A DNA stretch of 64,000 bases. Origin: an uncultured Erysipelotrichaceae bacterium (GTDB lineage Bacteria > Bacillota_I > Bacilli_A > RF39 > UBA660). Positions 10,996-62,825 of the stretch are shown here, one piece after another; position 1 is the first letter of the stretch, and each line of letters starts with the position of its first letter. The notes under the pieces are model-generated. The model was given only the letters and a program-made list of their open reading frames with translations, did no database searches and was not told the origin of the DNA. Location of the stretch: positions 1,453 through 65,452 of the forward strand of contig CACYFN010000002.1 in NCBI GenBank assembly GCA_902773675.1. The letters run 5' to 3'. Both the position numbers and the translations under genes were made by a program.

Positions 10996-12972
<1,977 letters not shown>

Positions 12973-18567: not shown

Positions 18568-18580
18568 TTATCTCACCCCC

Positions 18581-18624
18581 TCATGTATATTATTCGACAA
18601 AACTTTTCGATTTCCTTTTTTTTT
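18581..18624 (-). promoter_or_regulatory. copy 1 of a conserved promoter/leader module, located upstream of the bacteriocin exporter
   Basis: Plus-strand sequence tcatgtatattattcgacaaaacttttcgatttccttttttttt. Read on the minus strand it runs straight into the exporter SD and its TTG start. Confidence 0.45.
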
Positions 18625-18677
18625 CTTAAAAAAATTGAAAAAAAATGAAATTTCTTTATTGAATGCAAAAAAAAAGA

Positions 18678-18932
18678 CTATTTTTCAAATAATCCTTCGC
18701 ATAATTCATCCATGGTCATATCTAACATTAGAGCTATTTTATACATTGAATAGAATGATAAATTCTTTTTGCCACCTCTACTTACGATATGTCTTAGATA
18801 TTCATAGGACATTCCTATTTCTTCTGATAGATTCATTAGATTTATATTATCTTCTTTACATTTTTTTCTAATGTTAGCTCCTACTATATTTTGAACTTCG
18901 TCTACTTTTTTTATTTCTTTTAATCCATTCAT
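18678..18932 (-). CDS. XRE-family HTH transcriptional regulator
   Basis: HTH segment LSEEIGMSYEYLRHIVSRGG. The start is set at MNGLKE (18930-18932), which has the SD GGTGG. Confidence 0.6.
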   Translation of the reverse strand: MNGLKEIKKVDEVQNIVGANIRKKCKEDNINLMNLSEEIGMSYEYLRHIVSRGGKKNLSFYSMYKIALMLDMTMDELCEGLFEK

Positions 18933-19039
18933 ATTTCCACCAAGTATATTATATAATAAACAAATTTTGGTGTCTGCAAACAATTATTTTGCATTTTTTT
19001 ATGAATATATAAATAAGTATTTAATATAATATAATAGAT

Positions 19040-19570
19040 TTGGAGGCAAATATGATTAATAAAAGAAGCTTATGGTTTTTTACTTTATTTAGTTTAATTC
19101 TGGTACTTAGTATTTATTATATTACGATGCCAAGTGAAATGTTACTTAATAATAATTCTAAAAGTACTACTAAAAAAGAAAGTGTTAATAACTCTAATGA
19201 ACAAGTGACAGTAAATATTGAGGAAAGTGATTTACTAGCTGCTTTAAGAGTAGAATCTGATAGTGAGATGGAAAGTGAGATTGAAAATTTAAAGATGGTT
19301 TTAACTGATGATAAAACTAGTACTGATGATAAAAATAAGGCTTATGAAAAGATTAAAAAATTAAATAATAATCGGAGTGAGGAAGAAAATTTAGAAAAGA
19401 AAGTAAAGGATGAATTTAATTTGGATGCATTTATAAAGATTGAAGATGATCAAATTAAGGTTACTATTGATAGTGATATTCATGATAATAGTTTAGCTAA
19501 TAAGATTATGAGAAGTATACAAAGTAATTATGATACTAATAAATATATATCGGTTAAATTTCAAAAATAG
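19040..19570 (+). CDS. spoIIIAH: stage III sporulation protein AH family protein, encoded outside any spoIIIA operon
   Basis: The N-terminal TM helix KRSLWFFTLFSLILVLSIYYITMPSE and the C-terminal ...NLDAFIKIEDDQIKVTI...ISVKFQK closely match SpoIIIAH. Confidence 0.6.
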   Translation: MEANMINKRSLWFFTLFSLILVLSIYYITMPSEMLLNNNSKSTTKKESVNNSNEQVTVNIEESDLLAALRVESDSEMESEIENLKMVLTDDKTSTDDKNKAYEKIKKLNNNRSEEENLEKKVKDEFNLDAFIKIEDDQIKVTIDSDIHDNSLANKIMRSIQSNYDTNKYISVKFQK

Positions 19571-19671
19571 TTTTTATTAACTATTTTTTAGGCATTTATT
19601 ATCACTTTCTATTTAATAGTTCATACAATAATATGAGAAAATATAGCCACTGTTATAGAAAGTGAGGTAAC

Positions 19672-19875
19672 ATGAAAGGGATATTAACAAAAAGAGAAAA
19701 AGAAGTTTTTAATTTATTGATTGTTAATAAAACTACTAAGGAAATTGCTGATGAGTTAAATATTAGTGAGAAAACTGTTAGAAATCATATTTCTAATGTG
19801 ATGCAGAAACTTGGGGTTAAAGGACGTGCTAGTGCGGTTGTAGAGCTTTTAAAATTAAAGGAAATTTCTCTTTAA
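19672..19875 (+). CDS. gerE: LuxR-type sporulation transcription factor GerE
   Basis: LTKREKEVFNLLIVNKTTKEIADELNISEKTVRNHISNVMQKLGVKGRASAVVELL is close to identical to GerE. Confidence 0.8.
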   Translation: MKGILTKREKEVFNLLIVNKTTKEIADELNISEKTVRNHISNVMQKLGVKGRASAVVELLKLKEISL

Positions 19876-19925
19876 AAAGTGCATTATATTGTACTTTTTT
19901 TCATATTATTTTATAGGGTGATGTT

Positions 19926-20861
19926 GTGATAAAAAGAATATATATTAAGAAAATATTGGTATCTTCTGTAGCTTTATTTGCATTTTTTTTAATATATTTT
20001 ATTCCTAATGATAAAAAGATGGATTTAACTATTAAGCAAGAGGTTAAATATGTTAATAGTGATATTACTACACATAACATATATTTACTTGATAAGGATA
20101 ATTATGTAGCTAAAACAGAAATAGTTATTAATGATAATGAAATAGAAAATGTAGCTAAATATTTATTAACTGCTTTAATTATTGATGGAGAATATGAAGA
20201 TAAGATTCCTAATGGATTTAGAGCTTTAATACCTAGTGATACTAATATTTTAGATATTGAATATAAAGATAATTTAGTAAAAGTTAATTTTTCTGATTCT
20301 TTACTTGATACGGAAATGGAAGAGCAAGTAATTGAAGCAATTATTTATACTTTAACTAGTATTAATGGTGTTGATAAGGTAATAATACTTATTGATGGTA
20401 AAATATTAACTAAGTTACCTAAAAGTAATATTAATTTACCTAGTACTTTAGATAGAAGTTTTGGTATTAATAAAGAATATGATGTTAATAAAAATAAAAA
20501 TATTAGTAAGACTACTATTTATTATGTTAATAAGTATAATGATTTAGAATATTATGTACCTGTTACTAAGATTAATAATGATGAAAGGGATAAAATAGAA
20601 ATTATTATTGATGAACTTAGTAGTAAGAATATTTATAGAACTAATTTAATGAGTTATTTAAATAGTAATACTAAGGTATTATCGGTTAATGAAGATAATA
20701 ATTCGATGATGATTGATTTTAATGATTATATTTTTAATGATATTGAAAGTAAAGATATTTTAGAGGAAGTTATTTATACTATATGTTTATCTATTTATGA
20801 TAATTATAAGGTTAATGAGGTTGTTTTTAGGGTAAATAATGAAGAAATTTATAAAAATTAG
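19926..20861 (+). CDS. GerM-like lipoprotein with GerMN domains
   Basis: GTG start with the SD AGGGTGATG. N-terminal anchor and a two-lobed architecture that resembles GerM. Confidence 0.35.
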   Translation: MIKRIYIKKILVSSVALFAFFLIYFIPNDKKMDLTIKQEVKYVNSDITTHNIYLLDKDNYVAKTEIVINDNEIENVAKYLLTALIIDGEYEDKIPNGFRALIPSDTNILDIEYKDNLVKVNFSDSLLDTEMEEQVIEAIIYTLTSINGVDKVIILIDGKILTKLPKSNINLPSTLDRSFGINKEYDVNKNKNISKTTIYYVNKYNDLEYYVPVTKINNDERDKIEIIIDELSSKNIYRTNLMSYLNSNTKVLSVNEDNNSMMIDFNDYIFNDIESKDILEEVIYTICLSIYDNYKVNEVVFRVNNEEIYKN

Positions 20862-26159: not shown

Positions 26160-27908
26160 CTATTTTTTATCTTTTATTAAGTTTTTTATGAATTCTACAA
26201 ATTCATTACTATCTAAAGTTTCAGTTTTTTCACTACCATATTTTCGATATGAAATAGTACTATTATCTCTTTCTTTATCTCCTAATATTAAAGTAAATGG
26301 TATTTTACGTGTTACTGATTCACGTATTTTATAATTCATTTTTTCATCTCTATCATCTAGTTCTACTCTTATATCATTTTCAAGTAATAAGTCTTTTATT
26401 TTTTTAGAATAATCTAGATGATATTCTTTGTTTACTGGAATGATATTTACTTGAACTGGTGATAAGAATGTTGGAAGTACTCCTTTTGTTTCTTCTAGAT
26501 AATATGCAATAAATCTATCTATTGAACCAAATACTGCTCTATGAAGTACTACTGGTGTTTTTTTAGATCCATCTTTGTCTACATAAGTTAAATTAAATTT
26601 CATTGGTAAGCAGAAATCTATTTGACAAGTTGAAATTGTTATTTCATTACCTACAGCTGGTTTAACTTGTACATCTAGTTTTGGGCCATAGAAAGCAGCT
26701 TCTCCTGTTTTTTCTACATAGTCTATGCCAATATTATCCATTACTTTACGAAGCATATCTTCAGCTTTATTCCACATTTCATCATCTTGATAATATTTTA
26801 CTTTATCTTCTGGATCTCTTAATGATAATTCAAAACGGTAATTAGTTATATTTAATTCTTTGTAGCATTCTAATATTAAGTCAACTACTGTTTTAAATTC
26901 ACTTTCTACTTGTTCTAATGTACAAAATAAATGGGCATCATTTTGACAGAATGTTCTTACTCTTTCTACTCCTTTTAATGATCCACTTGCCTCATATCTA
27001 CAATCTCTAGCTATTTCTCCTATTCTAATAGGTAAATCTTTATATGAATGAATTCCATTAGAATAAATAACCATATGATGTGGACAATTCATTGGACGAA
27101 GTACAAATTCTTCTCCATCTACTTCCATTATTGGGAACATTGAATCTCTATAATGATCTAAGTGTCCACTTGTTTTATATAATTCTACATTACCAAGTGG
27201 TGGAGTCATTACATGTTTATATCCTAATTTCTTTTCTTTTGTTTTTATGTATTTTTCTAACTCTTCCCATAAAATATATCCATTTGGTAAATACATTGGA
27301 AGTCCTTTACCTACTAAATCAGATAGCATAAATAAGTTTTGTTCTTTACCAATTTTTCTGTGATCTCTTAGTTTTGCTTCTTCTAATTCTTTTAAGTAGT
27401 CATTTAAATCTTCTTCTGTTTCAAAGCATACTCCATATATTCTTTGAAGCATTTTATTTTTAGAATCCCCTTTAAAATATGCTCCTGATACTCTTATTAA
27501 TTTAAAATATTTCATTGATTTAGTTGTTGGCATATGAGGTCCACGACATAGATCAACAAAGTCATCTTGTTTATATGCAGTAATTACTTCATCATCACTT
27601 AAATTATTTATGATATCTAATTTATAAGGATTATCCTTAAACATATCTAAAGCTTCTTTTTTAGAAAGTTCCAATCTAGTTATCCTTTTATCACTTTTAG
27701 ATATTTTTTTCATTTCCTTTTCTATTTTTTGTAAATCATCTATAGTAATAGATTCATCTAGGTCTATATCATAATAAAATCCCTCTTCTATAGCTGGTCC
27801 TACCCAAAATAAAGCTTTAGGAAATAAATGTTTTATAGCATGAGCTAGAAGGTGTGCACAACTATGGTTTAACATATTTAATTTTTCATTTTCTTTTATA
27901 TTTATCAT
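26160..27908 (-). CDS. thrS: threonyl-tRNA synthetase lacking the N-terminal TGS domain
   Basis: HSCAHLLAHA (HxxxH of the editing domain), a class II catalytic core and an anticodon-binding domain. Total length is 582 aa. Confidence 0.85.
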   Translation of the reverse strand: MINIKENEKLNMLNHSCAHLLAHAIKHLFPKALFWVGPAIEEGFYYDIDLDESITIDDLQKIEKEMKKISKSDKRITRLELSKKEALDMFKDNPYKLDIINNLSDDEVITAYKQDDFVDLCRGPHMPTTKSMKYFKLIRVSGAYFKGDSKNKMLQRIYGVCFETEEDLNDYLKELEEAKLRDHRKIGKEQNLFMLSDLVGKGLPMYLPNGYILWEELEKYIKTKEKKLGYKHVMTPPLGNVELYKTSGHLDHYRDSMFPIMEVDGEEFVLRPMNCPHHMVIYSNGIHSYKDLPIRIGEIARDCRYEASGSLKGVERVRTFCQNDAHLFCTLEQVESEFKTVVDLILECYKELNITNYRFELSLRDPEDKVKYYQDDEMWNKAEDMLRKVMDNIGIDYVEKTGEAAFYGPKLDVQVKPAVGNEITISTCQIDFCLPMKFNLTYVDKDGSKKTPVVLHRAVFGSIDRFIAYYLEETKGVLPTFLSPVQVNIIPVNKEYHLDYSKKIKDLLLENDIRVELDDRDEKMNYKIRESVTRKIPFTLILGDKERDNSTISYRKYGSEKTETLDSNEFVEFIKNLIKDKK

Positions 27909-29273: not shown

Positions 29274-30371
29274 CTAACAACCACTTCCATAATATATACC
29301 ATTTCCATACGAGAAGCACTGAGTATTTTCACTGCTATAAATATATATATCACCATTTTGATTTAAACTAACATTAATTTCTGATTCGTCAGTACAATCA
29401 ATACTATATTCTTCGTCTCCAGTACACTGATTATCCCAATCAAAAAAATGTTTTACAATATCAATATTTTTAGAAATCAATAAATTATCAGAATCTCCTT
29501 CTAAACAAAAATATCTATTGTTCATAGCACCACACAAAAAAACTCTTGTAACTATATTATTATCTGTTATAACTCCAGCAAAAGCATCACCCAAAGAAGA
29601 ATAATCATTTGTATAATCATTAGATTCGTCTAATTCTTCATTTAATAATTGAAAACCAGTAAAAAAAATACAATTTGGACACATACTTTCCATTGAATAT
29701 GGATCTACTGGTTTTACTTCTGCTATTTCTACATTAGTATTCCATGCTGTTGCATACTTATTATATTGTACTGTTTCTATTGTTAGTGTTAATGTATATG
29801 TAGCATTATCATAATCATCGCCACTAGAGTTACATGTTGTAGTTGTTACTCCATTGTTAGTTGTTGTTGTACATGTATCATCTAATTTAGTTTTTGGATT
29901 AAATGTTACTGATTCTAATAATGAACTAGTTGATTCTGTTGGTGCTAATTTATAATTATAATAGTAATAATTACCTACTTTAGTCCAATCTGATGTATTA
30001 GCTAAATTAAGTATTGCTACCCTTTCATCTGTTTCTAACTCACTTTGTGTAGTATGAGTTGATTTAGTACCATCTGCATGAATCCATCCATTTAATGTAC
30101 CATTATTATTTGTAGTCCAAGATTCAGTAACTAGTACTCTTACAGCTTGGTCTACTTCCCCTGTATTAGTGGCTACTAATGTTTTTTCTGTTGTATCTCC
30201 TGGTAGCCAATTATCAGGTGATACAAAGGTTTCTTCGTATGTAGTACCATATTCTTTAGTTGTAAATGTATTATCTAAACTGGTTGAGTTTGCAAAATAA
30301 GCTATTGTTAGACCTACTATACCTATTATAGCTATTAATAAAAGTGCAATTATACTTTTCTTATTATTCAT
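29274..30371 (-). CDS. TasA/CalY (camelysin, peptidase M73)-like secreted protein with a Cys-rich C-terminal domain
   Basis: The signal peptide ends ...GLTIAYFANSTSLDNTFTT, which resembles the SipW-cognate signal of TasA (GGTWAAFND...ATFASGTLDL). The C-terminal 150 aa carry about 12 Cys. Confidence 0.5.
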   Translation of the reverse strand: MNNKKSIIALLLIAIIGIVGLTIAYFANSTSLDNTFTTKEYGTTYEETFVSPDNWLPGDTTEKTLVATNTGEVDQAVRVLVTESWTTNNNGTLNGWIHADGTKSTHTTQSELETDERVAILNLANTSDWTKVGNYYYYNYKLAPTESTSSLLESVTFNPKTKLDDTCTTTTNNGVTTTTCNSSGDDYDNATYTLTLTIETVQYNKYATAWNTNVEIAEVKPVDPYSMESMCPNCIFFTGFQLLNEELDESNDYTNDYSSLGDAFAGVITDNNIVTRVFLCGAMNNRYFCLEGDSDNLLISKNIDIVKHFFDWDNQCTGDEEYSIDCTDESEINVSLNQNGDIYIYSSENTQCFSYGNGIYYGSGC

Positions 30372-30984: not shown

Positions 30985-32190
30985 TTATCTTTTAAATTTT
31001 CCTTTTGCACCTTTTACGCCATTATAATTTGATAATATATTGGTATCAAAGGAATATGTTTTCTTTTGTTTATTTTTATATTCTTTGATAGCTATATTAA
31101 TCATATCATCTAGTAATTGTTCATAACTTTTACCAATTGGTTCCCATAGATAGAAAGCTAAACTTCCTGGAATTGTGTTTGGTTCGTTTACATATACTTT
31201 GTTTTTCTTTTTATCTATTAGATAATCTATTCTACAAAGTCCACTTAGATTTAGTGCTTTAAATACTTGTTTACTTAAGTCTTTTATTTCGTTTTCAGTT
31301 TTTTCACTAATTCTAGCTGGTATTACTCTGCTTGCACTTGCCATACCTTTAGATCCTAATGATTTAATTCCGCCTTTTGTTTTACCTTTTGAGTTACCAA
31401 TATATTTATCTTGGTATGTAAGAAGATTATGTTCACTTGTTACTTCTTCTAAGGCACTTGTTTCTTGATGCATGTAATTACCTAGAACACTACAGTTCAC
31501 TTCTGTTAGATCTTCTACTGCTTTTTCTACAACTATTTTTTTATCATATTTTATTGCTTCTTCAATAGCATTTGTAATGTTTAGTTCATCTTTTACAAAT
31601 GTTATTCCTACACTACTTCCAAGGGTAGCTGGTTTTACTACTACTGGATATCCTAATTTTTTTATTTTATTTAATATTGTATCTCTACTTTCATTATATT
31701 CTATATCATAAAACCAAGTATATTCTACTACAGGTATATTCATGCTTTCAAATACTTGTTTCATTACTACTTTATCTTGACCTAGTGCACTACCAAGTAC
31801 TTTACTTCCTACATATGGTATACCTATTGAATCTAAATATCCTTGTAATGATCCATCTTCGACATTGTTTCCATGTACTATTGGAAGAACTATATCAATA
31901 TCTGTTATATCGCTTCTAAATAGTCCAGTTACTTTTTGAAGATAAAATTTGTCTTTCTTTTTTACAAGTGTTACTTTTTTGGCATATTTTTTTAAATCAT
32001 CAAAATTTCTGAATACATCTATATCCATTAATAATTTTCCAGCATACCATGTTCTATCTTTACTAATATAGATAGGCATTATATCATATTTTTCTTGATT
32101 TATGTGTTCCATTGCTTGGAGAGCACTTATGATACTTACTTCGTGTTCGACACTCTCTCCTCCAAATATTACTCCTAATTTTATTTTCAT
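30985..32190 (-). CDS. ddl: D-alanine--D-alanine ligase with an extended loop and C-terminal tail
   Basis: MKIKLGVIFGGESVEHEVSIISA and an ATP-grasp fold. Confidence 0.85.
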   Translation of the reverse strand: MKIKLGVIFGGESVEHEVSIISALQAMEHINQEKYDIMPIYISKDRTWYAGKLLMDIDVFRNFDDLKKYAKKVTLVKKKDKFYLQKVTGLFRSDITDIDIVLPIVHGNNVEDGSLQGYLDSIGIPYVGSKVLGSALGQDKVVMKQVFESMNIPVVEYTWFYDIEYNESRDTILNKIKKLGYPVVVKPATLGSSVGITFVKDELNITNAIEEAIKYDKKIVVEKAVEDLTEVNCSVLGNYMHQETSALEEVTSEHNLLTYQDKYIGNSKGKTKGGIKSLGSKGMASASRVIPARISEKTENEIKDLSKQVFKALNLSGLCRIDYLIDKKKNKVYVNEPNTIPGSLAFYLWEPIGKSYEQLLDDMINIAIKEYKNKQKKTYSFDTNILSNYNGVKGAKGKFKR

Positions 32191-52342: not shown

Positions 52343-54241
52343 TTATTTCTTCTTCATTTTCTTAAATATTATTGCAGATAATATTACTTGAGCAAATATA
52401 AATAAATTTATTAATATTAATCCTATTAAAATATATTTAATTAATCCATCATCTAATCCATCTTCTCCATAGTCATTATAATAATTATTGATATTTCCAT
52501 TATTATCTATACTATTATTTTCTTTTTCTTCTTCAATTTCGTCTTTTGTTGTTTCTGGATTATTTGATTGCTCATTTGTAAGAGTCTTTTGTTTTTCATT
52601 GGATTCTTTTATTATATTATTGGTTGATTCTTCATCTAATTTTTCTACATTATCTAATTTTAATGTAATTACTGGTCTTATGCCAGCTGTAAATGATAAT
52701 TCTCCTACTCCATTATATCCTGATAGGAAAAAATTATTTCCATTATTTTGACCTGGTGCGATATAAAGAGATACCCAGTTCTTTTCTATTTCAGCATTAT
52801 CGAGATTATAGAACATTATTCCTACATTGAAATATCCATTACCATTATATGGTGATGATGTATCTTCTACAGATTTTTTATTAAATTGCCTTTTGGAATT
52901 AATCCAATATTTAGCATTTACTTTATCATTTATTTTATTTAGATTAGCTAAATCAGAATATACAACTGCTCTAGCATTTATTACTTTATCTCCATTTTTA
53001 TAATTATCTACTTCTTTTTGAAGAATATCTTCATAATTTTCATAATCATCTTTTCCTCTAAGGTAAAGATTTTTTACTATTCCACCACTAATTATATCTA
53101 CTGTATTATTTGCTTTATCTATTGATAATACACGCCAATTTTTATATTCTTGTGCACTATAATTTACATAGTCTCCTACACTTAAATCAGTATTTGCTTC
53201 TTTTTTGTTAGTTTCTTGTGGTGTTAGTTTAAGGGTAACTACTGGCCTAAATCCTTTTGTTACTGGTTGGTATTGACTATATGTTTCAGAATAGCAACAC
53301 TCTAAATAGTTTCTTTCTACTACATACTTTTCAATTTCATAGTATCTTGATTTATATCCTTCTCCAGAACTATCTCCAAACCATCCTCTTAATATTTTAT
53401 ATGGGTTACTTTTGGATGCATAATAATTTTTTATTTTAGTAATATAATTTATTCTATCATTTCCATATCTTTGAAGAACATGTCCAGTTTCCCAAACATT
53501 ACTGTCTGACTGACGATAATCATTAAAAATTGCATCAATATATCCATATGGATCATTTAACATTTGCTCATTACCTAATACATCTATTGCAATTGGGTCT
53601 TTAGGCATTAACCATAAAGAATCTCCCCATACTTCTATTATAAACCATTCACTAATACCACCAATATCTTTGGTATATATATCTCCTTGTTCATAACCAG
53701 ATGTGTTATCTAAATGATATTGTATATATGGTAAAAAATATAGATCATTTGAAAAATCAGATGGATCTACATATTCAATTTTTCCTGCTGAATATGCAAT
53801 ACTCTTATCATATTTGTCTGCTGTCCAAAATTCTTTACCAAATGCAAAATTCTCCAAATCAGAACGATTTACGCTTCTTGCTTTAATAGCATATTTCCCA
53901 TCAACATATTTATCTGCTTCAGTTTGAAATATATCTAATGCATTATCAAAATCATCTTTATCTGATATAGTTATTTCGGATACATTATCTTTACTTACAA
54001 CGTCTATTGTTCCATTTACTTTATCTATATAGATAACTTTCCAATCTGAATATCCATTTATTTCATATTTTATTGAATCACCAATTTTAATTTTTTTTAT
54101 ATTTGTATTTAAATCATTTATGTTGTAGACACTACCCATTAATCTATTAGGATTTACTGATATTCCAACTAATACAATTATTAATATAACCATAAAAATA
54201 CTTGTAATTAGTACTTTTATTGCATTACTTTTTTTATTCAT
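52343..54241 (-). CDS. large two-anchor surface protein with two tandem ~200-aa repeats
   Basis: Each repeat runs from ...GDSIKYEINGYSDWKVIYIDKVNGTIDVVSK... to ...GFRPVVTLKL. It is a paralog of the 54263 and 45159 proteins. Confidence 0.5.
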   Translation of the reverse strand: MNKKSNAIKVLITSIFMVILIIVLVGISVNPNRLMGSVYNINDLNTNIKKIKIGDSIKYEINGYSDWKVIYIDKVNGTIDVVSKDNVSEITISDKDDFDNALDIFQTEADKYVDGKYAIKARSVNRSDLENFAFGKEFWTADKYDKSIAYSAGKIEYVDPSDFSNDLYFLPYIQYHLDNTSGYEQGDIYTKDIGGISEWFIIEVWGDSLWLMPKDPIAIDVLGNEQMLNDPYGYIDAIFNDYRQSDSNVWETGHVLQRYGNDRINYITKIKNYYASKSNPYKILRGWFGDSSGEGYKSRYYEIEKYVVERNYLECCYSETYSQYQPVTKGFRPVVTLKLTPQETNKKEANTDLSVGDYVNYSAQEYKNWRVLSIDKANNTVDIISGGIVKNLYLRGKDDYENYEDILQKEVDNYKNGDKVINARAVVYSDLANLNKINDKVNAKYWINSKRQFNKKSVEDTSSPYNGNGYFNVGIMFYNLDNAEIEKNWVSLYIAPGQNNGNNFFLSGYNGVGELSFTAGIRPVITLKLDNVEKLDEESTNNIIKESNEKQKTLTNEQSNNPETTKDEIEEEKENNSIDNNGNINNYYNDYGEDGLDDGLIKYILIGLILINLFIFAQVILSAIIFKKMKKK

Positions 54242-54262: not shown

Positions 54263-56263
54263 TTACTTTTTCTTTTTATTTTTTATATTTTTAATAATAA
54301 GTACAGAAAATATTGTTTGAATTAGTAACGCTATATTTAATATTACTATAGTAATTATTATATATTTTACTATTTTATTATTATTATTTTTCTTTTTATG
54401 GTTATTATAATAATTATTTACTTCATTATTATCTTTAGTATCTATTTTATTATCTTCTGTATTTTTATCATCTTTAGTTATATCATTTTTTGTATTATTT
54501 TTTTCATTATTCTTTTTAGTATCATCTGTTATATATTTAGTACTATTATTCTTTTGTTCTTTTGTAATATTATTATTATTTTTATTTGATGATTCAATAG
54601 CATTTTGTGTTTCTTCTTCATTTAATTTTTTAACATTATCTAGTTTTAATGATATTACTGGTCTAATTCCAGCTGTAAATGATAAATCTCCAAATCCATT
54701 GTAACCTGTTAACATAGAACTTGATCCACTTGTTAGGCTTGTTGAAACATATAATGAAACCCATTTTCTTTCTACTGAATTTGTGTCATAGTCAAAATAT
54801 AAAATTGCGGCATCATAGAATCCATTAGTAGCATAAGGAGATGATGTTTCATCTACTGCTTTTTTGTTATATTGTTTTTTTTCTAATGACCAATATTTTA
54901 CATTTACATCATCATTAATTTTATTTAATTTTTTAATATCACTATATTCAGTTATTCTGGCACTTATAGCATTATCACCATTTTTATATTCATCTACTTC
55001 TTTTTGTAAAATATCTTCATAGTTTTCAAAATCATCTAATCCATAAAGGCTTATATTTTTAACTATTCCACCACTAATTATATCGACTGTTTCATTTTCT
55101 TCATCTATTGATAATACTTTCCAGTTATAATATTCTTTAGCACTATAGTTTACATTATCTCCAACTTGTAAATCTGTTCCAATACTTTTACCATCTGCAA
55201 TTTTTGAACTATATTTTAGAGTAACAATTGGTCTAAAGCCTTTGGTAATTGGTTTTTCTGTTATATATGATTCATTTTCACAACATTCATCACTATTTTG
55301 GTCAAGGTGAATTGTTGCAACAGATCCTGTTATTTCGTCATAAGTATAATTTTGATGTAATTCAAAGTATCCTGTAAAAGTTTTTAGATCATTTCCTTCT
55401 TGAATAAAGTAATTATTTATATTTTGATTGTCTCTTATAACCCAGAATCCATATTTATCTTGAAGGTTACCTACTTCTACTACTTTATTATTGGAATTTT
55501 GTAATCTTTCTAGATATTCTGCAATATATTTTGTTGGATTATTTCTAAATTGTTCATTTTTTTCAAATGACAATTTAATTGGTTCTTTTGATATTAGTGC
55601 TAATTTATCATATGAAGGAGCATTGATAACAAACCAATCTGTAACTCCATCAATATCTATTGTATAGTCTGATCCATAAGCATACGAATAGGCATTTTCT
55701 ATATCATTTATGATGACATATGGGATGTAATAGTATTCATGGGGTTTATTTTCAAATTCTGTATATTTAACTGCTCCGGTTGTAAATGCTACTGCTCCAT
55801 CATAAATATCAGCATTCCAGAATTCTTCATCAAATGCAAAGTTATCTAAATCAGCTCTTGATACACTACGTGCTTTTATTGCATATTTTTCATCTACATA
55901 TTTATTGGCTGTTTCTTGAAATTTATTTAGGGCATTGTCATAATCATCTTTAGTTAGTAAGGTTATATCTTCAACATTGGTTTTACTAACAACATCAATT
56001 GTATTACTATTTCTATCAATGTATACTACTTGCCAATCAGAATATCCATTTATTTCATAATTAATAGTATCTCCTACTTTTAATATATTATTATTACTTT
56101 CTAATTCTGTTGCTTTATAAGTACTACCTAAAAGTTTATCTGGTTTAAGCTTTGTTCCTAGCAATATAACAAATACAAAGATTAAACTTAATCCTATTAT
56201 TAAAACATATTTTTTAGGTGTTTTTATATTATTAGATTTTTTAACATTTTTTTTATTATTCAT
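54263..56263 (-). CDS. large two-anchor surface protein, paralog of the 52343 protein
   Basis: Same repeat architecture: ...GDTINYEINGYSDWQVVYIDRNSNTIDVVSK... ending in GFRPIVTLKY and AGIRPVISLKLD. Confidence 0.5.
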   Translation of the reverse strand: MNNKKNVKKSNNIKTPKKYVLIIGLSLIFVFVILLGTKLKPDKLLGSTYKATELESNNNILKVGDTINYEINGYSDWQVVYIDRNSNTIDVVSKTNVEDITLLTKDDYDNALNKFQETANKYVDEKYAIKARSVSRADLDNFAFDEEFWNADIYDGAVAFTTGAVKYTEFENKPHEYYYIPYVIINDIENAYSYAYGSDYTIDIDGVTDWFVINAPSYDKLALISKEPIKLSFEKNEQFRNNPTKYIAEYLERLQNSNNKVVEVGNLQDKYGFWVIRDNQNINNYFIQEGNDLKTFTGYFELHQNYTYDEITGSVATIHLDQNSDECCENESYITEKPITKGFRPIVTLKYSSKIADGKSIGTDLQVGDNVNYSAKEYYNWKVLSIDEENETVDIISGGIVKNISLYGLDDFENYEDILQKEVDEYKNGDNAISARITEYSDIKKLNKINDDVNVKYWSLEKKQYNKKAVDETSSPYATNGFYDAAILYFDYDTNSVERKWVSLYVSTSLTSGSSSMLTGYNGFGDLSFTAGIRPVISLKLDNVKKLNEEETQNAIESSNKNNNNITKEQKNNSTKYITDDTKKNNEKNNTKNDITKDDKNTEDNKIDTKDNNEVNNYYNNHKKKNNNNKIVKYIIITIVILNIALLIQTIFSVLIIKNIKNKKKK

Positions 56264-56416: not shown

Positions 56417-57649
56417 TTATTTATCTTCTAGTTTTTTTTTCATGATGATTGCTATTGCTACTAAAACAACAACGCATCCACCAAGAATAGCAAATATTTT
56501 TACAATATCATCTAGTGTTTTTGGTGCTTCTGCTTCTTTTTTTTCTTCTTTTACTTCTTCTAATGTTTCTTCTTTTGCTTCTTCAATAGTTTTTTCTTTT
56601 AAACTTGCTCTTGCTGCTTTTAACTTTGTAACCATTTCATCTACATTTTCTTGAGTAGCATTAGTATTATTTTTTAATTCATTAGCTTCATCTAATAAAT
56701 CTTCAACATTTTTAAATGATTCATCAGTATATTTATCTTTTTCTAATGCATTAATTTCTTCTAATTGTTTTAATAATTCAGTTTTATCTGCTTGATTTTT
56801 TAAATTATTTTTTGCTGTATTAATACTATCTATTCCGTTTTTTATATCATCTATTGTGATTGTTGTACCTTCCAAAACTGTTTTTTGTGCTTCTATTACT
56901 TCTTTCAAACTATCTATTGAATCTTTTGTATAATTATTCGCATAATCCTCATATTTTCCTTCTTCTTCAGTAATTAAATTTGATAATAATGCAGTATTTA
57001 CTTCTAACGCATCAACAATGTCATCAGCTTCTCCAAATGTATAATCTACTTGAATATAGAATTTACCTGGAGTTGTTGTATCTTCATTAAGAGTAATTTC
57101 TGATGAAATAGCTGTTTCAATATTTTCAATTAATTCATCTAAATTGCTAAAAGAAGTTGATGTGTAATATTCTTTATTATTTTGATACTCTTTTAAAGTA
57201 CTTAGACGTGTTTGTAATTCAGTCTTGTCATAAAGATACCAATTTCCTATTCTCTTTGATCCACTATATCCTGTTATTTTGTATGCATAGTTTTTTTCAA
57301 TATATCCTAAATTAATTGTTTTATTAGAGTCTCCTCCATTTTCATTATGAAAAATTATCATATTATAATGATATTCATCAAAACTATCTGGGGCTGTAAA
57401 CATGTATATATTGTCTTCGCCAGGAACCTTAACTAATTCATCATTACTATCCCAGGCTTTATATGTTGCTCCATTTTTTTCCCAAATATGAATATAGATA
57501 TGATTCCAGTCTAATCCAGTTGCATCAAAATAGATAACATCTCCTTTTTTTATTGCTGAATGTTCTTTATCTGGCGTATATGTAGCTTTTACATTTGATA
57601 TACAAAGCATTGTAAGTATTATTGCTATAAACGCAAATATTTTTTTCAT
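56417..57649 (-). CDS. surface protein with an N-terminal beta-domain, a coiled-coil region and a C-terminal sorting-like anchor
   Basis: Signal peptide. The C-terminus reads EAPKTLDD, a hydrophobic helix, then KKKLEDK. Confidence 0.5.
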   Translation of the reverse strand: MKKIFAFIAIILTMLCISNVKATYTPDKEHSAIKKGDVIYFDATGLDWNHIYIHIWEKNGATYKAWDSNDELVKVPGEDNIYMFTAPDSFDEYHYNMIIFHNENGGDSNKTINLGYIEKNYAYKITGYSGSKRIGNWYLYDKTELQTRLSTLKEYQNNKEYYTSTSFSNLDELIENIETAISSEITLNEDTTTPGKFYIQVDYTFGEADDIVDALEVNTALLSNLITEEEGKYEDYANNYTKDSIDSLKEVIEAQKTVLEGTTITIDDIKNGIDSINTAKNNLKNQADKTELLKQLEEINALEKDKYTDESFKNVEDLLDEANELKNNTNATQENVDEMVTKLKAARASLKEKTIEEAKEETLEEVKEEKKEAEAPKTLDDIVKIFAILGGCVVVLVAIAIIMKKKLEDK

Positions 57650-57762
57650 TTTCTTCCTCCTATTATTATATGTAAATTATATAATAAATATTTTCTTTTG
57701 TCAATATTAGCATGAAATAAATTTCTTTTTTATATACTAAAAAATAGTACTAATTGCACTAT

Positions 57763-58287
57763 TTAATATTCTTCATCATTTATTATCTTTGCTTCTATAA
57801 TTATTTGTATATCATCTTTAATTTTATGGCATGTTATAAGTGTAATAGTATTATTATGATTTTCTATTTTAAAGGAATTCTTTTTTAATTCTTTTATGTT
57901 ATATATTTGATATGTATACTTGACATTATCTTTATATAAATAAATAATATCTTCATTCTTTAATTCATCTAATCTGTTAAAATAACATATACTGCAGTTA
58001 CCGGAATGACTTGCTAAAATTATATCATTATTTAGAAATCTTTGATAATCTATGATAGTAATATCTTCATCTACATTAGAATCTTTTTTTAACCCTCTTT
58101 TTAAATTTATTTTAGGTATTTCTAATATTGCTACAAAATCATTATTATCTTTATGTTCTAAATAGTTAGCTATAGAATTAATTTCTTGTTTTTGAATTTT
58201 ATAATTTTGATAATAATTATTACACTTTAAAGTTATGCCAATTATGATAAATAAACTACTTATTAAAATTATACTTTTTAGTTTCAT
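57763..58287 (-). CDS. small sortase-family transpeptidase
   Basis: ILASHSG (His) and TLITC (TLxTC Cys). No canonical Arg is obvious after the Cys. Confidence 0.55.
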   Translation of the reverse strand: MKLKSIILISSLFIIIGITLKCNNYYQNYKIQKQEINSIANYLEHKDNNDFVAILEIPKINLKRGLKKDSNVDEDITIIDYQRFLNNDIILASHSGNCSICYFNRLDELKNEDIIYLYKDNVKYTYQIYNIKELKKNSFKIENHNNTITLITCHKIKDDIQIIIEAKIINDEEY

Positions 58288-60031
58288 ATATACCTATAAA
58301 ACCTATTATAATAAAAATATTAGATAGTATTTTATTATAATTAATTTCATTTTTTAATGTATTTGGTATTTCATATTGTTCATTTATTACTTCAATATTA
58401 TTAAAATCATTATCTATATTTATATCAATATTATCTGTATTTAATAAATATCCATTAACTCCTTCTACTTCTTCTAAATAATATTCTCCATAATAAAGAT
58501 CAGATATATAGCCATAACCATTATTAATTGTTATTTCATCTATTAATTCATCAGCTTTATAATAGATATCTCCTGTAAGTGATACTATATCTTTTTTAGC
58601 AAATAATTTAAATTTTGCTCCATTTAATAGTAAATTATCACTACCTATTTTTTTGATTTCTAAATTACCTTTTTTTATTATTTCTTTATCTTTTAACTCA
58701 ATTATAGTTTCTTCTTTAATGTTTGAGGCATCTATTTCTATTGGACTACTTATTTCAAAGTTATCTTTTCCACTTATTTGTTTTAGAATATATTTACCAA
58801 ATGGTAAAAGTAATTCTATGGTACCTGATTCATCTGTTATATATGTATCTATTAAATTATTATATTCATCATAAAGTTCAAATGAGGCATCACTTTCTAA
58901 ATAGTAATTATCAGTTATTTCATTACCATATTTTTTTATGATTTTATATTTATTTTTGATTATATCTTCATATACTATTAGTTTTTGATGATTATTAGTT
59001 GAGGTTAGATTTACTTCATATTTGGTATCATCTAACATATATCCTTTACTGGGTTGTATTTCTTTTATGTAATAATTTCTTAATGGTAAATCAGAAATTA
59101 CTCCATATCCATTATTATCAAGTGATATTTCTTGAATTAATTTATTATCTTCATCATATAATCCATATACCGCTCCTTCTAGGGTAGCTGGCGCTTGACT
59201 AGTAATATTTTCTCTATCTTGTTTATTAATTTCTATTGTTCCATCTTTAAATGTTATAGTTATTGACTTTGTTACATCATCATACTTACCTGGATAAAAC
59301 ATGTTTTGTCTTACATTGTTATTATATAATATATAATCTCTAGTTTCAGAAGATTTTTTTATAAAACGAATTGTATATGTACCTGGATTATCACTGGATA
59401 TTGTTAATGTATTACCAACTTTATTTATGTTAATATTACCATTATAATCAATATCATATAAGTCAAGTACATTGTTATTATCTACTAATGTATATTGTTC
59501 TTTAATACTATAATTGTTTTCTATGTTAAAATTTGGAGTAATGTAATGATTATTTACAAGACTATTTAATTCATTTAATTCTTCTTTATATTGAATAATT
59601 TTATTTCCATATAATGTATCGGTATAATAGATATCATCTAGTCCTAAAGTTTCCCAAATAAGATATTGAGTTATTCCATACCATTTTATATCGGTATGAT
59701 TATTATAACCATATCCATAATGAGCAAGTAAATTCATTCTATTTATTTGTTCTTTTGATAAACCGAATAATTCATTATATCCAATATATCCTTCATAATT
59801 TCCATTTATTTCATTAGTAAATGGATCTATGCAATATACATAATTATTATCACTTCTTAGTAGCATCCATGTTGATGTATTTCTTAAATTACCATTTTTT
59901 ATTTTTGTTACATAGGCATTTGGTACCATACTACCAAAGTGAAATGATTCTATTAAATCATAAGCTGATACTTTAGATATACTTATAATAAGTATAAAAA
60001 TAATAAATAAAATTTTTTTCATTTTTTTCAT
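58256..60031 (-). CDS. thioester-domain (TQXA) adhesin with CnaB/SpaA-type isopeptide domains
   Basis: YVYCIDPF followed by GITQYLIWE, with Cys...TQxxIW spacing typical of a thioester domain. It has three CnaB-like repeats, and its C-terminus reads IPNTL, a hydrophobic helix, then KKYNFNK. Confidence 0.6.
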   Translation of the reverse strand: MKKMKKILFIIFILIISISKVSAYDLIESFHFGSMVPNAYVTKIKNGNLRNTSTWMLLRSDNNYVYCIDPFTNEINGNYEGYIGYNELFGLSKEQINRMNLLAHYGYGYNNHTDIKWYGITQYLIWETLGLDDIYYTDTLYGNKIIQYKEELNELNSLVNNHYITPNFNIENNYSIKEQYTLVDNNNVLDLYDIDYNGNININKVGNTLTISSDNPGTYTIRFIKKSSETRDYILYNNNVRQNMFYPGKYDDVTKSITITFKDGTIEINKQDRENITSQAPATLEGAVYGLYDEDNKLIQEISLDNNGYGVISDLPLRNYYIKEIQPSKGYMLDDTKYEVNLTSTNNHQKLIVYEDIIKNKYKIIKKYGNEITDNYYLESDASFELYDEYNNLIDTYITDESGTIELLLPFGKYILKQISGKDNFEISSPIEIDASNIKEETIIELKDKEIIKKGNLEIKKIGSDNLLLNGAKFKLFAKKDIVSLTGDIYYKADELIDEITINNGYGYISDLYYGEYYLEEVEGVNGYLLNTDNIDINIDNDFNNIEVINEQYEIPNTLKNEINYNKILSNIFIIIGFIGIYETKKYNFNK

Positions 60032-60045
60032 TTTTTTCCTCCTTA

Positions 60046-61074
60046 TTAACTTGGTATTTGGATAAAAGATAAATAATCATTTTTCATCCATATGTTGTAT
60101 TCTGTATTAATCCAATTATTATAGTCATACCAAATTCCGTCATAAAAATACCTAGATAGTTGATGGGTATTTTTATTTATTTTATATGTTAAATCTTGTT
60201 GATTTGGTATTCTAATATCATTGGTAATAATTTTATTACTGATAAGTTTAAACATATTATATTTTTGAGTATCTATTATATATTCATAACCATAACCACT
60301 TATTTTTTTATTTATATAAATTGGGTTATTCCAATTTAGGTCAGTAGAATCGGAATTATTAATTCTTTTCCATAGGTAAATAGATGGATTTTGATCTATA
60401 AATATATAGATTCTTTTTTTATTAAATTGAGAAAATACTAGAGGTGCGAATACTTTTCCTAAATTATTAGTTGAGAATGATAAATCAATGGTTTGTTTTT
60501 TAGCACTAATCTCTGAATTATTGGTATCGGTAAAGATAATATTTTTATATTTATTTATATTTTCTGGTTCTATATTATAAGCATATATTTTTTTTTGATA
60601 ATCTATTAGGGTTGCAGGTTTACCCGGCCATGGTGCATTATATATTTTTTCTTGATCATTATATAAATAAACATTTACATTAGTTGAATTCCAATCAGGA
60701 GGTATTTGAAAATAGATATAATTATTTTTCCATTTAGCAAATAGTTCTATAGTATCATTATCAACAGAAGTTAGATTTATGATAGATTCTCCATCTTGAT
60801 AATTTTTTCCTGTTCCATTTTGTTCGGTATTCCATCCATCAAAAGTATATCCTTCTTTTGTAAAAGTATTTAAATTTAGATTATAACTTGTATCATATAT
60901 TAAATTCATATCTGGCATTGATCCGATACCAGAGTTTGAATTAAATTTTACTATATAATTTGGTTTACGATTATTAATAGTTATTGTACTTTTAAAAGAA
61001 GTATGATATTTACTATAAGATACTGGAATTATCATTGATAATACTATTAATAAAATAATTAATACTTTTTTCAT
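60046..61074 (-). CDS. secreted Listeria-Bacteroides repeat protein
   Basis: The signal peptide ends VSYSKYHTSF. GYTFDGWNTEQNGTGKNYQDGESI is a List_Bact repeat. Confidence 0.5.
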   Translation of the reverse strand: MKKVLIILLIVLSMIIPVSYSKYHTSFKSTITINNRKPNYIVKFNSNSGIGSMPDMNLIYDTSYNLNLNTFTKEGYTFDGWNTEQNGTGKNYQDGESIINLTSVDNDTIELFAKWKNNYIYFQIPPDWNSTNVNVYLYNDQEKIYNAPWPGKPATLIDYQKKIYAYNIEPENINKYKNIIFTDTNNSEISAKKQTIDLSFSTNNLGKVFAPLVFSQFNKKRIYIFIDQNPSIYLWKRINNSDSTDLNWNNPIYINKKISGYGYEYIIDTQKYNMFKLISNKIITNDIRIPNQQDLTYKINKNTHQLSRYFYDGIWYDYNNWINTEYNIWMKNDYLSFIQIPS

Positions 61075-61085
61075 GAGTCACCTCT

Positions 61086-61547
61086 TTATAAGTTTACTTG
61101 ATTAAATATTACTTCTATTTGAATAGGATGGTTTAAAAGATTTGGGGTTGCTAATGTGGATTTAAAATGGAGAGTATCTTGAATATTTAGTATTTCTTTT
61201 GATGAATTTATGGTTCTGACATCAATAATTATTTGATTATTATTGGAACTTATATATGAATTATTATTGAGTGATACTTCTATTTCATCTGGAACATTAG
61301 TGAGTTTTATTATATAATTGGAAGCTACTTCAGATTTATAGGAAATATTAATTATATAATCCTCGATATTACTACCTGATACTAAATCTAGTGTTTCATT
61401 TGGTAGACTTGCTTCTATATTCCATTTAGCTATAGCAATACTTTTATTAATTAATAAATTATTATTGTATTTTGAGTATGTGTTTACTATTATATTAAAT
61501 GAAAATATAACAAAATAAATTAATAAGAAATGGATATATTTTTTCAT
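61086..61547 (-). CDS. secreted protein with a TasA-like N-terminal motif
   Basis: ...NTYSKYNNNLLINKSIAIAKWNIE..., paralogous to the N-terminus of the protein at 62199. Confidence 0.5.
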   Translation of the reverse strand: MKKYIHFLLIYFVIFSFNIIVNTYSKYNNNLLINKSIAIAKWNIEASLPNETLDLVSGSNIEDYIINISYKSEVASNYIIKLTNVPDEIEVSLNNNSYISSNNNQIIIDVRTINSSKEILNIQDTLHFKSTLATPNLLNHPIQIEVIFNQVNL

Positions 61548-62122
61548 AGATTATCATTCTCTTCTATACTAAAAGATAGTTTTACTATATATTTATTAAT
61601 ATTACTTTTTCCAATATAATTATCTAATTTATCATTATCAAACCATTTCCAATCTAGAGAATAATTATCTATGTTTCCTTTTGATAAATTTAGATAGGTA
61701 GTTTTTAATTCTTCGGATGTTACCCATAATTTATCATTTCCAAGTATATATTCATCATTTCTTTTTAATCGATATTTTATATTAACACTGTAATTGGATA
61801 GTTTAGTTAATTCTATTAAATATTTAATAGTTATGTTATTGTTATTTTTTACTTTAAAATAATATGTATTAGATACTCCTGGGGCAATAGTTTTTGTGTT
61901 ATTAAATAAATTTATTTCTGTTTGATATTGATAATCTCCATTATAATCTTCAATAATGATATTACCATTATCTAATTTACAATTATCTTTTTTACTATTA
62001 AATTTAATATTATAAATATCTGCATTTTTCTTTAATATTTTTGTTTTAGTACATTTTACAAAAAGAAGAAGAATTATTATTAATACTAATATTATATTTA
62101 TTATTTTCCACTTATTATTCAT
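61544..62122 (-). CDS. hypothetical membrane-anchored protein
   Basis: N-terminal TM segment with an N/K-rich beta-rich ectodomain. It is coupled to the downstream gene. Confidence 0.45.
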   Translation of the reverse strand: MNNKWKIINIILVLIIILLLFVKCTKTKILKKNADIYNIKFNSKKDNCKLDNGNIIIEDYNGDYQYQTEINLFNNTKTIAPGVSNTYYFKVKNNNNITIKYLIELTKLSNYSVNIKYRLKRNDEYILGNDKLWVTSEELKTTYLNLSKGNIDNYSLDWKWFDNDKLDNYIGKSNINKYIVKLSFSIEENDNL

Positions 62123-62198
62123 TTAATACCTCCTATTTAGTTTCCATAGACAAAATAATTATTACTTTGCCTATGGAAGTTAAATAACTTCCAATTTA

Positions 62199-62825
62199 TT
62201 AGTTTATGTGAATAGTTATTGGATTAGTTCCTGGTCTTACTTGTGTTCCTGTAATAGTTACTGGTATTTCTAGTATTTCTCCTAAAACACCATATTCATT
62301 ATCAAGTGCATCTCCGCTATATATTCCATTTGTTATGGATCCTGTTTCAAATATCCACTTCCAATATATGGTTACTGTTAATCCTTCTTCGTCATTAGCA
62401 GATAATTGTCCATTTATTTTAGTGATTCCTGGTATTATTTCTGTTTGATAGTTTGAATCTTTATAAAATTTAATATTTGTAGGAAAATGTTCAACACTAT
62501 CTAATGAAATGCTGAAATTAGCACCAACATCACTAGTATTTACTAAGTCTATGGAAAATGATCCTTCTGTACCTGGGGCAATTATTTTATAATCTTTTCC
62601 ATCAACTGTTCTTGAACTTATAAGTGTTGATTCATCATAATTATCTTTTAGGTTAATATTAATTGTTTCAGAATTATTATCAGTTTCAAAATTCCATCTA
62701 GCTATAGCTACGGAACTTCTTTTGGAAATAGAGGCTGTGTATTTAGCATATGTACCTGCAATAAAAACACCAGATATACCAATTACTAATAGTAATAATA
62801 ATACTTTAATTTTTTTCTTTTTCAT
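62199..62825 (-). CDS. secreted protein with a TasA-like N-terminal motif, first gene of the island operon
   Basis: ...AGTYAKYTASISKRSSVAIARWNFE... with the SD AAAGGAAGTG. The promoter module lies 60 nt upstream. Confidence 0.5.
   Translation of the reverse strand: MKKKKIKVLLLLLVIGISGVFIAGTYAKYTASISKRSSVAIARWNFETDNNSETININLKDNYDESTLISSRTVDGKDYKIIAPGTEGSFSIDLVNTSDVGANFSISLDSVEHFPTNIKFYKDSNYQTEIIPGITKINGQLSANDEEGLTVTIYWKWIFETGSITNGIYSGDALDNEYGVLGEILEIPVTITGTQVRPGTNPITIHIN

Follow-up and report, generated by a model that had tools for sequence, protein, structure and literature searches.

The fibre protein TasA of Bacillus subtilis is cleaved by the signal peptidase SipW, its mature chain starting at residue 28 (T-W-A|A-F-N-D), and residues 28–38 form the donor strand of the fibre (PMC9674648). 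TapA, whose fold differs from that of TasA, is matured at A44, and its AFHDI resembles the AFNDI of TasA (PMC10151520). In Clostridium perfringens, a sortase gene is adjacent to sipW-bsaABC and is dispensable for polymerisation (PMC7395162, PMC11580942), and the BsaA fibres combine donor-strand exchange with an isopeptide bond (PMC11580942). Donor-strand fibres of the TasA superfamily were described to share an aromatic “clamp” at position 2, and monomer predictions leave their N-terminal extension unstructured (bioRxiv 10.64898/2026.01.04.697558). Here, a stretch of 64,000 nucleotides from an uncultured Erysipelotrichaceae bacterium (assembly GCA_902773675.1, contig CACYFN010000002.1, positions 1,453 to 65,452), henceforth called the window, was analysed with respect to a five-residue motif, [ST]-Y-[AS]-K-Y, which a preliminary description of this DNA had noticed in three secreted proteins (here p1, p3, and p4). 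As judged by sequence comparison, the motif is the hallmark of a large family that neither Pfam nor NCBIfam covers, here called the KY family. We consider it rather probable that the motif is a combined secretion and assembly signature, i.e., a variant form of the SipW-cognate signal found in TasA/BsaA-type fibre proteins, with a donor-strand mechanism.

The motif and its family

In the six-frame translation of the 64 kb (GC content 24.7%), [ST]Y[AS]KY matched three times, and only in p1, p3, and p4 (codons at 62739–62753, 61467–61481, and 61006–61020, respectively), which are members of one minus-strand operon. The number expected from the amino-acid composition of the 64 open reading frames (ORFs) of at least 90 amino acids was 0.07, and three matches were reached in 0 of 2000 within-ORF shuffles. 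In all three proteins, a lysine-rich n-region is followed by a hydrophobic core of ~12–18 residues and immediately by the motif. The N-termini quoted in the preliminary description for these proteins and for a fourth one, p8, were found exactly as written; the N-terminal regions read ...IAGTYAKYTASISKRSSVAIARWNFE (p1, 62199–62825), ...IVNTYSKYNNNLLINKSIAIAKWNIE (p3, 61086–61547), ...IPVSYSKYHTSF (p4, 60046–61074), and ...GLTIAYFANSTSLDNTF (p8, 29274–30371), all on the minus strand. The features concerned are as follows:

62199 to 62825, minus strand: p1, 208 amino acids, putative major subunit, founding member of the KY family; residues 1–27 are the signal peptide, with a predicted cut after A27, followed by the conserved N-terminal strand and a beta-sandwich core (IAPG...N...WKW...TQV)
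62739 to 62753, minus strand: motif T25-Y26-A27-K28-Y29 of p1, predicted SipW-type cleavage between A27 and K28
62685 to 62744, minus strand: conserved N-terminal segment K28-E47 of p1, KYTASISKRSSVAIARWNFE, proposed donor strand based on the conservation logo and a low predicted local distance difference test (pLDDT) score
61544 to 62122, minus strand: p2, 192 amino acids, with an N-terminal transmembrane segment and the beta-sandwich core of the family, without motif and donor segment; proposed membrane-anchored, acceptor-only base subunit
61086 to 61547, minus strand: p3, 153 amino acids, candidate minor subunit with motif T23-Y-S-K-Y27 and SIAIAKWNIE
60046 to 61074, minus strand: p4, 342 amino acids, with motif S19-Y-S-K-Y23, the short conserved strand HTSFKSTITINNRKP, and Flg_new and CBM26-like domains; proposed tip adhesin
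29274 to 30371, minus strand: p8, 365 amino acids, BsaA-family SipW-dependent biofilm matrix protein with the signal T-I-A-Y-F; comparator

The proteins p1, p2, and p3 are paralogues, with p1 and p3 related over signal, motif, and AIA[KR]WN[FI]E, and p1 and p2 over the IAPG...WKW core (BLASTP of p1 80–168 against p2 77–170, E = 5e-5); a hidden Markov model (HMM) of the family matched p2 at E = 1e-10 and p3 at E = 6e-7. The element SxAIA[KR]WN[FI]E, already reported as common to p1 and p3, was recovered by BLASTP in an alignment spanning signal peptide, motif, and segment (40% identity over 55 residues, E = 2e-8). Missing from the preliminary description was p2, the motif-less paralogue between p1 and p3. 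Its orthologues match the family HMM at about positions 55–164 only, i.e., over the core and not over the N-terminal segment, and its position in the gene cassette is conserved in 50 loci. By comparison with the family, p4 carries only the shared N-terminus and no acceptor fold; its Pfam matches are Flg_new (Listeria-Bacteroides repeat, 1.7e-11) and CBM26 (1.7e-8). For p1, p2, and p3, no Pfam or NCBIfam match above threshold was obtained.

An indexed search yielded 80 homologues of p1, none with a Pfam domain or a name. By means of a profile search over 1.84 billion cluster representatives, 8,344 clusters (50% identity) were assigned to the KY family at E ≤ 1e-3 and 4,627 at E ≤ 1e-10. The consensus of 216 sequences runs KK - hydrophobic core - V-[SAG]-G-T-[YF]-A-K-Y-T-S-x6-8-A-x-V-A-K-W-x-F, T being conserved in 209, A and K in 210 each, and Y in all 216 of them, and the motif is kept down to 28% overall identity. 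In the core of the family, N96 and D175 are invariant and acidic residues near-invariant. No curated cutoff of Pfam or NCBIfam was reached by any of 33 diverse members, a search of PDB sequences with the family profile had 0 matches, and the literature search found no paper describing the family (a search for the motif string gave irrelevant matches only). The motif was regarded as the hallmark of an uncovered family because it is near-invariant in the 216 sequences and because no curated cutoff was reached by the 33 members.

The wording “resembling but distinct” from the SipW-cognate signal of TasA, chosen earlier for the motif, agrees with the comparison against TIGR04088 that had been recommended alongside it: p1 scored 12.0 bits (E = 0.18), below the cutoff of 19, p3 and p4 gave no match, and yet T-Y-A-K-Y-T aligns on the BsaA-type T-I-A-Y-F-T (see below). 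Two of the 33 family members matched TIGR04088 at E ≤ 1 (best 0.036). The window’s own p8, at 14.9 bits, also stays under this cutoff; it carries the TasA-like TIAYFANS...NTF signal reported for it and is assigned to the BsaA family by TIGR04090 (112 bits, E = 3.7e-32, with a cutoff of 60), and its match to Peptidase_M73 is weak.

Predicted cleavage site, linked peptidases, and portability

The KY family was aligned with hhalign to a BsaA-type family built from p8, which placed TYAKYT on TIAYFT (95.9%, E = 5.5e-9) in the register v-G-T-Y-A-K-Y-T-S on v-G-x-T-i-A-y-F-t-x-s. The -3/-1 rule is obeyed in p1, p3, and p4 alike only at [ST]-Y-[AS]|K, the next upstream site having N (p3) or V (p4) at -1. 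Based on the TasA register and on this being the only site obeying the rule in all three proteins, we read the motif as straddling the predicted cut, with T/S at -3, an aromatic residue at -2, A/S at -1, K at +1, and Y at +2. Of the “post-signal-peptide” placement given earlier, the location at the end of the signal peptide therefore stands, and the motif most likely spans the cleavage site instead of following it. Three other classes of signal or subunit were considered and rejected. A type IV pilin or class III signal would have the motif before and not after the hydrophobic core, and TIGR04205 matched 2 of the 33 members at E ≥ 0.068; a lipoprotein signal in p2 would need a lipobox, which is absent; and a sortase pilin does not fit p1–p4, which have no C-terminal sorting signal, transmembrane tail, or YPKN-type pilin motif (only the adhesin p5, introduced below, has IPNTL and a transmembrane segment).

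Homologues originated from Erysipelotrichaceae, uncultured Bacilli/“Tenericutes”, Clostridia, the cultured Hungatella effluvii DSM 24995, and a Gordonibacter chromosome. The H. effluvii cassette (L038) is complete and has the signals T-M-A-K-Y, T-L-A-R-Y, and T-A-A-R-Y. S26 peptidase genes were present in 79 of 85 non-redundant related loci and lay within 3 kb of a family member in 78 of the 85. One to three of them stand near the family, usually two per locus and often less than 100 bp away, and the conserved cassette order is S26a - p1 - p2 (or a protein of ~850–1500 amino acids) - S26b - p3-like - large protein. All 8 peptidases tested passed the cutoff of TIGR02228 (archaeal/endoplasmic reticulum (ER)-type signal peptidase I, SipW class) and show SGSMEP...THRI...GDxNN, with His, not Lys, in box D; the cassette peptidases are small and SipW-like (144–245 amino acids) and retain the catalytic Ser and His motifs. 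In three loci (L001, L081, and L095), an S26 peptidase is fused to a family domain, joined by an internal transmembrane segment and the motif. Such natural fusions (Rosetta-stone evidence) indicate that the enzyme and the motif-bearing protein work together, and a passenger attached behind an internal transmembrane segment and the K-Y motif implies that the enzyme cleaves its own C-terminal passenger. Comparison across relatives thus speaks for the dedicated signal-peptidase recognition element that had been suggested for the motif, with cleavage itself being predicted.

Fusion genes were located at 11369–12418 and 12429–13550 in L001 and at 5166–6038 in L095, the ectodomain being of the family or another one. 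In a subclade of Clostridium sp. metagenome-assembled genomes (L020, L021, L022, L025, L031, and L082), the order is p1 - 187 amino acids - p2-like - ~445 amino acids with signals of the G-Q-V-Y-A-K-Y-M type; no S26 gene was found in these neighbourhoods, making this a second lineage, besides that of the window, which keeps the motif without a local peptidase. In L013, a second locus lies 5 kb downstream of the KY cassette (17364–20624) and encodes a 182-amino-acid VGYAAFQT protein, a 393-amino-acid S26-like protein with only a faint Peptidase_S26 match, a DUF5305 protein, and a Flg_new protein, matching the AbpX-type loci of bioRxiv 10.64898/2026.01.04.697558.

For the portability of the signal, ORFs with an N-terminal hydrophobic segment in the related loci were counted if the element followed directly after the segment. 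The relaxed form [AGS][KR][YF] was present in 139 of 182 family members; among non-family ORFs, it was present in 82 of 184 (45%) inside cassettes versus 9 of 326 (3%) outside. With the strict motif, the respective counts for non-family ORFs were 20/184 and 0/326. The motif is hence a portable signal and not only a trait of the family, as it is found on unrelated mature domains, too. Large p4-type proteins (340–1800 amino acids, with Flg_new and other domains) keep [SGC]-K-Y and a short strand x-I-x-L-N-x-R-x-P. One p4 homologue (42% identical) carries the classical I-G-Y-S-A-F-N in the register of V-S-Y-S-K-Y-H, so that the two signal types can replace each other at that position.

The operon of the window’s own lineage departs from the canonical cassette. 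It continues with two genes downstream of p4:

58256 to 60031, minus strand: p5, 591 amino acids, thioester-domain adhesin with three SpaA/CnaB repeats; its signal peptide is ordinary, and its C-terminus has a sorting-like signal (IPNTL), a transmembrane segment, and a basic tail (Pfam TED 1.5e-5, SpaA 6.9e-33)
57763 to 58287, minus strand: p6, 174 amino acids, sortase (TLITC) overlapping the end of p5 (Pfam Sortase 1.8e-12; TIGR01076 at E 2.1e-9 and 37.3 bits, just under the cutoff of 39.35)

Gene orders in related loci, with identity to p1, were:

L005 (57%): p1-p2-S26b-p3-p4
L095 (71%): p1-p2-(S26b::p3 fusion)-p4-adhesin-sortase
L094 (79%) and the window: p1-p2-p3-p4-adhesin-sortase; the start of p3 coincides with that of the internal transmembrane segment in the L095 fusion
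L096 (63%): p1-p2-adhesin-sortase

In the window, the start of p3 overlaps the stop of p2 exactly at the position of S26b in the relatives, and HMM, phmmer, and regular-expression searches found no degraded S26 gene. In each of the four loci of the window’s clade (window, L094, L095, and L096), the cassette occurs together with the thioester adhesin and the sortase. A sortase occurs in only 3 of the 84 other loci, which marks adhesin and sortase as a lineage-specific addition and not as part of the core system. Gene order thus indicates that the operon of this lineage has lost both cassette peptidase genes and has become contiguous with genes for a thioester adhesin and a sortase. For p1, p3, and p4, processing must consequently depend on a peptidase encoded elsewhere; p8 has no adjacent sipW either, and one or more genes for a SipW-type enzyme are thus presumably present in other parts of the genome. 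The C-terminus of p5 reads IPNTL-KN followed by a transmembrane segment and a basic tail, and its orthologues have IPNTG (L095, 7111–8880) and IPSTG (L096, 3078–4841), so the glycine of the sortase motif is replaced by leucine in the window copy.

A proposed donor-strand model and rival explanations

AlphaFold2 models of p1 show a beta-sandwich core at high confidence. The motif had pLDDT values below 50 in the full-length model (residues 24–31), and so had mature residues 1–22 of the mature-only model, which constitute the most conserved stretch of the family. Tyrosine stands at predicted mature position 2 in 216/216 sequences, a placement that depends on the predicted cut site. A strand that is conserved yet left unplaced by the models suggests the pattern of a donor strand. 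The N-terminal assembly or donor-strand segment that had been offered as the other possible role of the motif is thus backed by comparative data, i.e., by a K-Y...A-x-V-A-K-W-x-F stretch that is unstructured in the monomer model, with assembly itself being predicted from these.

We propose the following donor-strand polymerisation, in which the mechanism and each subunit’s role are hypotheses. Precursors would be exported by the Sec pathway and retained in the membrane by their hydrophobic core until a SipW-class (archaeal/ER-type) signal peptidase I cuts at [A/S]|K, with T/S at -3, an aromatic residue at -2, and A/S at -1. The N-terminal stretch thus exposed, which reads K-Y-T-S...A-x-V-A-K-W-x-F for p1 and p3 and K-Y-x-[ST]...L-N-x-R for p4, would serve as the donor strand, and the aromatic residue in its second position would dock in the beta-sandwich of the next subunit. 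p1, having both donor and acceptor, would build the shaft; p3, small and with a donor segment, would be a minor subunit or adaptor and part of the shaft; p4, with a donor segment and Flg_new/CBM26-like domains and no acceptor fold, would be the distal tip adhesin; and p2, an uncleaved membrane anchor with the acceptor core and no donor segment, would form the base. This arrangement of tip (p4), shaft (p1 and p3), and membrane base (p2) is proposed because the cassette holds the full set of parts expected for a donor-strand fibre.

By several independent criteria, the KY system appears to work like the SipW/TasA paradigm. As in tapA-sipW-tasA of B. subtilis, an ER-type signal peptidase is encoded with its substrates (for KY, in relatives of the window operon), the register is the same (T-W-A|A-F in TasA versus T-Y-A|K-Y), and the first mature residues are common to the major subunit and an accessory protein of different fold (AFNDI of TasA and AFHDI of TapA; here p1/p3 versus p4). 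The segment right after the cut, which is the donor strand in TasA (PMC9674648, PMC10151520), is proposed to be so in KY. Unlike the B. subtilis proteins, KY has K-Y for A-F at +1/+2, stays below the TIGR04088 cutoff, and has no match to the Peptidase_M73/TasA profiles; the canonical cassette comprises a membrane-anchored paralogue and a large modular protein in addition to two peptidases, with the window copy being devoid of a peptidase. The sipW-bsaA-bsaB-bsaC locus of C. perfringens (TIGR04090) is likewise a Firmicute system for a SipW-dependent matrix fibre with a disordered N-terminal donor segment and a neighbouring sortase, and a true BsaA-family gene is even present in the same window (29274–30371); BsaA differs in having T-I-A-Y-F and an N-E-K isopeptide triad, and KY aligns to it convincingly over the signal region only.

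TasA-superfamily loci (AbpA, AbpX, and Tafi; bioRxiv 10.64898/2026.01.04.697558) resemble the KY cassette in combining a dedicated signal peptidase I with major and minor subunits, a tip protein, and a membrane or LPXTG anchor, as well as in the aromatic “clamp” at mature position 2 and the N-terminal extension that is unstructured in monomer predictions. They differ in that no sequence or Foldseek link from p1 to them was found and that the acidic residue at position 4 is not conserved in KY; the AbpX-type peptidase has ~ten transmembrane helices and a DUF5305 partner, whereas the KY cassette enzymes are small and SipW-like. To SpaA-type sortase pili, the window cassette is linked by its contiguity with a SpaA/CnaB thioester adhesin and a sortase, and signal-peptidase homologues are encoded in some pilus loci. 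The signal-peptidase-like SipA/LepA of Streptococcus pyogenes pilus loci is such a case. Unlike in these pili, p1–p4 have no sorting signals or pilin motifs, 81 of the 84 other loci are without a sortase, and the KY peptidases keep their catalytic Ser/His motifs. The KY system differs from these closest known systems in the K-Y that opens its mature proteins, in having two small SipW-like peptidases per cassette and a membrane-anchored paralogue, and in that no TasA/BsaA profile match was found for its mature domain.

Several results weigh against a TasA/BsaA-type signal with donor-strand assembly. When signal peptides were trimmed, the hhalign match between the KY family and BsaA fell to a probability of 6% (E = 0.006, 30 columns), leaving “IAPGTEGSF..N.SEV” versus “WLPGTTT..N.GDV”; the 95.9% match was mostly signal-derived and was thus ruled out as proof of BsaA homology. 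No Pfam, NCBIfam, or PDB-sequence match, including Peptidase_M73/TasA, was found for p1–p3 and the 33 members. Foldseek searches of the PDB with the full-length and mature-only models returned generic jelly-roll, CBM, GOLD, and CUB folds at template modelling (TM) scores of ~0.2–0.38; TasA was not one of the 50 matches listed. Furthermore, the invariant Lys at +1 is no feature of TasA-type signals, and neither the 64-kb window nor the adjoining 6 kb of the contig yielded S26a, S26b, or any other signal peptidase. The motif of p3 drifts within the window’s clade, to T-Y-C-K-Y in L094 and T-Y-S-K-I in the L095 fusion, which could reflect relaxed constraint.

Part of these observations would also be expected if the housekeeping signal peptidase processed the proteins at ordinary Sec signal peptides, with the shared residues being inherited among paralogues and having no special role in signalling or assembly. 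p1, p2, and p3 are indeed paralogues, T/S-x-A/S fits the general -3/-1 rule, and the window encodes no dedicated peptidase. This explanation is nevertheless quite improbable, as the element is also present on p4 and on many cassette proteins with unrelated mature domains, as positions -2, +1, and +2, which general signal peptidases leave unconstrained, are near-invariant across thousands of clusters, and as SipW-class genes flank the family in 78/85 loci and are sometimes fused to it. Quite improbable, too, are proteins that do not polymerise at all and act as monomeric, secreted or membrane-tethered beta-sandwich proteins with a carbohydrate-binding or adhesin function, the N-terminal segment being a sorting or retention tag. 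The Foldseek matches listed, which include CBM6/CBM35-type modules, GOLD/CUB folds, and the receptor-binding domain (C-domain) of the C. perfringens enterotoxin, would agree with such a function, as would the CBM26-like modules in p4 and p7 (see below). All of these structural matches are weak (TM-score ≤ 0.38), though, and the split into donor-only, donor-plus-acceptor, and acceptor-only proteins with a conserved unstructured N-terminus is the pattern of donor-strand systems.

The lysine invites a further explanation, in which it would be a nucleophile, either as a sortase acceptor for linkage to the IPNTL adhesin p5 or in an intermolecular isopeptide lock like N35-K74 of BsaA, and would yield a covalent fibre. 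It is conserved in 210/216 sequences, sortase and sorting-signal protein are adjacent in all four window-clade loci, the combination of donor-strand exchange and isopeptide bond has a precedent in BsaA fibres (PMC11580942), and the family core offers the invariant N96 and D175 and near-invariant acidic residues. Set against this are the scarcity of the sortase among the other loci (3/84), the lack of C-terminal sorting signals and YPKN-type pilin motifs in p1–p4, and structural models of which none puts K28 beside N96 or D175; recognition of the P1' residue by the peptidase would explain the conservation equally well, and we regard a role of the lysine as nucleophile as unlikely. With a similarly low likelihood, the cassette could represent an undescribed class of gut/rumen Firmicute filaments with a fold separate from TasA and two ER-type peptidases, in which the Lys-Tyr N-terminus both docks and links covalently (by isopeptide or sortase-type chemistry), tip adhesins need only the KY strand, and the window lineage has been rewired to do without peptidases of its own and with a thioester adhesin and a sortase.

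On balance, KY family surface proteins probably assemble like TasA biofilm fibres. If the SipW-type secretion and assembly signature is real, T-phi-A|K-Y would be a second major class of SipW-type cognate signal, and the probable surface-fibre subunits would amount to at least 8,000 clusters (50% identity) in gut/rumen Erysipelotrichaceae, uncultured Bacilli/“Tenericutes”, and Clostridia, i.e., in groups whose surface structures are almost unknown. It would also provide a simple annotation rule for substrates of many unexplained SipW-like peptidase paralogues, and would suggest which large modular proteins (Flg_new, CBM-like) sit at fibre tips, which is relevant to how cells adhere to host glycans or dietary fibre. 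Both the peptidase::substrate fusions and the window’s operon with its missing peptidase genes are natural experiments on the specificity of enzyme-signal pairing.

Neighbouring genes

Upstream of p1, at a distance of 133 bp, a desulfoferrodoxin gene is located. The spacer of 76 bp between p1 and p2 contains the palindrome TGGAAGTTAAATAACTTCCA (62174–62193), which could act as an attenuating hairpin behind the gene for the major subunit; no clear T-run was seen on the coding strand. Downstream of the sortase gene lies one more surface-protein gene:

56417 to 57649, minus strand: p7, 410 amino acids, surface protein with CBM26-like and FIVAR domains, a C-terminal transmembrane segment, and its own consensus promoter

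In this DNA of 25% GC, the promoter and terminator scan was uninformative except for the perfect sigma-70 consensus TTGACA-17-TATAAT upstream of p7 (57676–57704, minus strand), which suggests that p7 is transcribed independently of the p1–p6 string and is probably a unit of its own. The neighbours of p8 are ddl (30985–32190) on one side and an unknown ORF of 306 amino acids and thrS (26160–27908) on the other, with no adjacent sipW, and p8 has a cysteine-rich C-terminal extension of ~150 amino acids. Directly downstream of the operon, two paralogues of 666 and 632 amino acids are encoded on the minus strand (54263–56263 and 52343–54241); they have N- and C-terminal transmembrane segments and no Pfam match, and read LLGSTYKATE and LMGSVYNIND after the first transmembrane segment.

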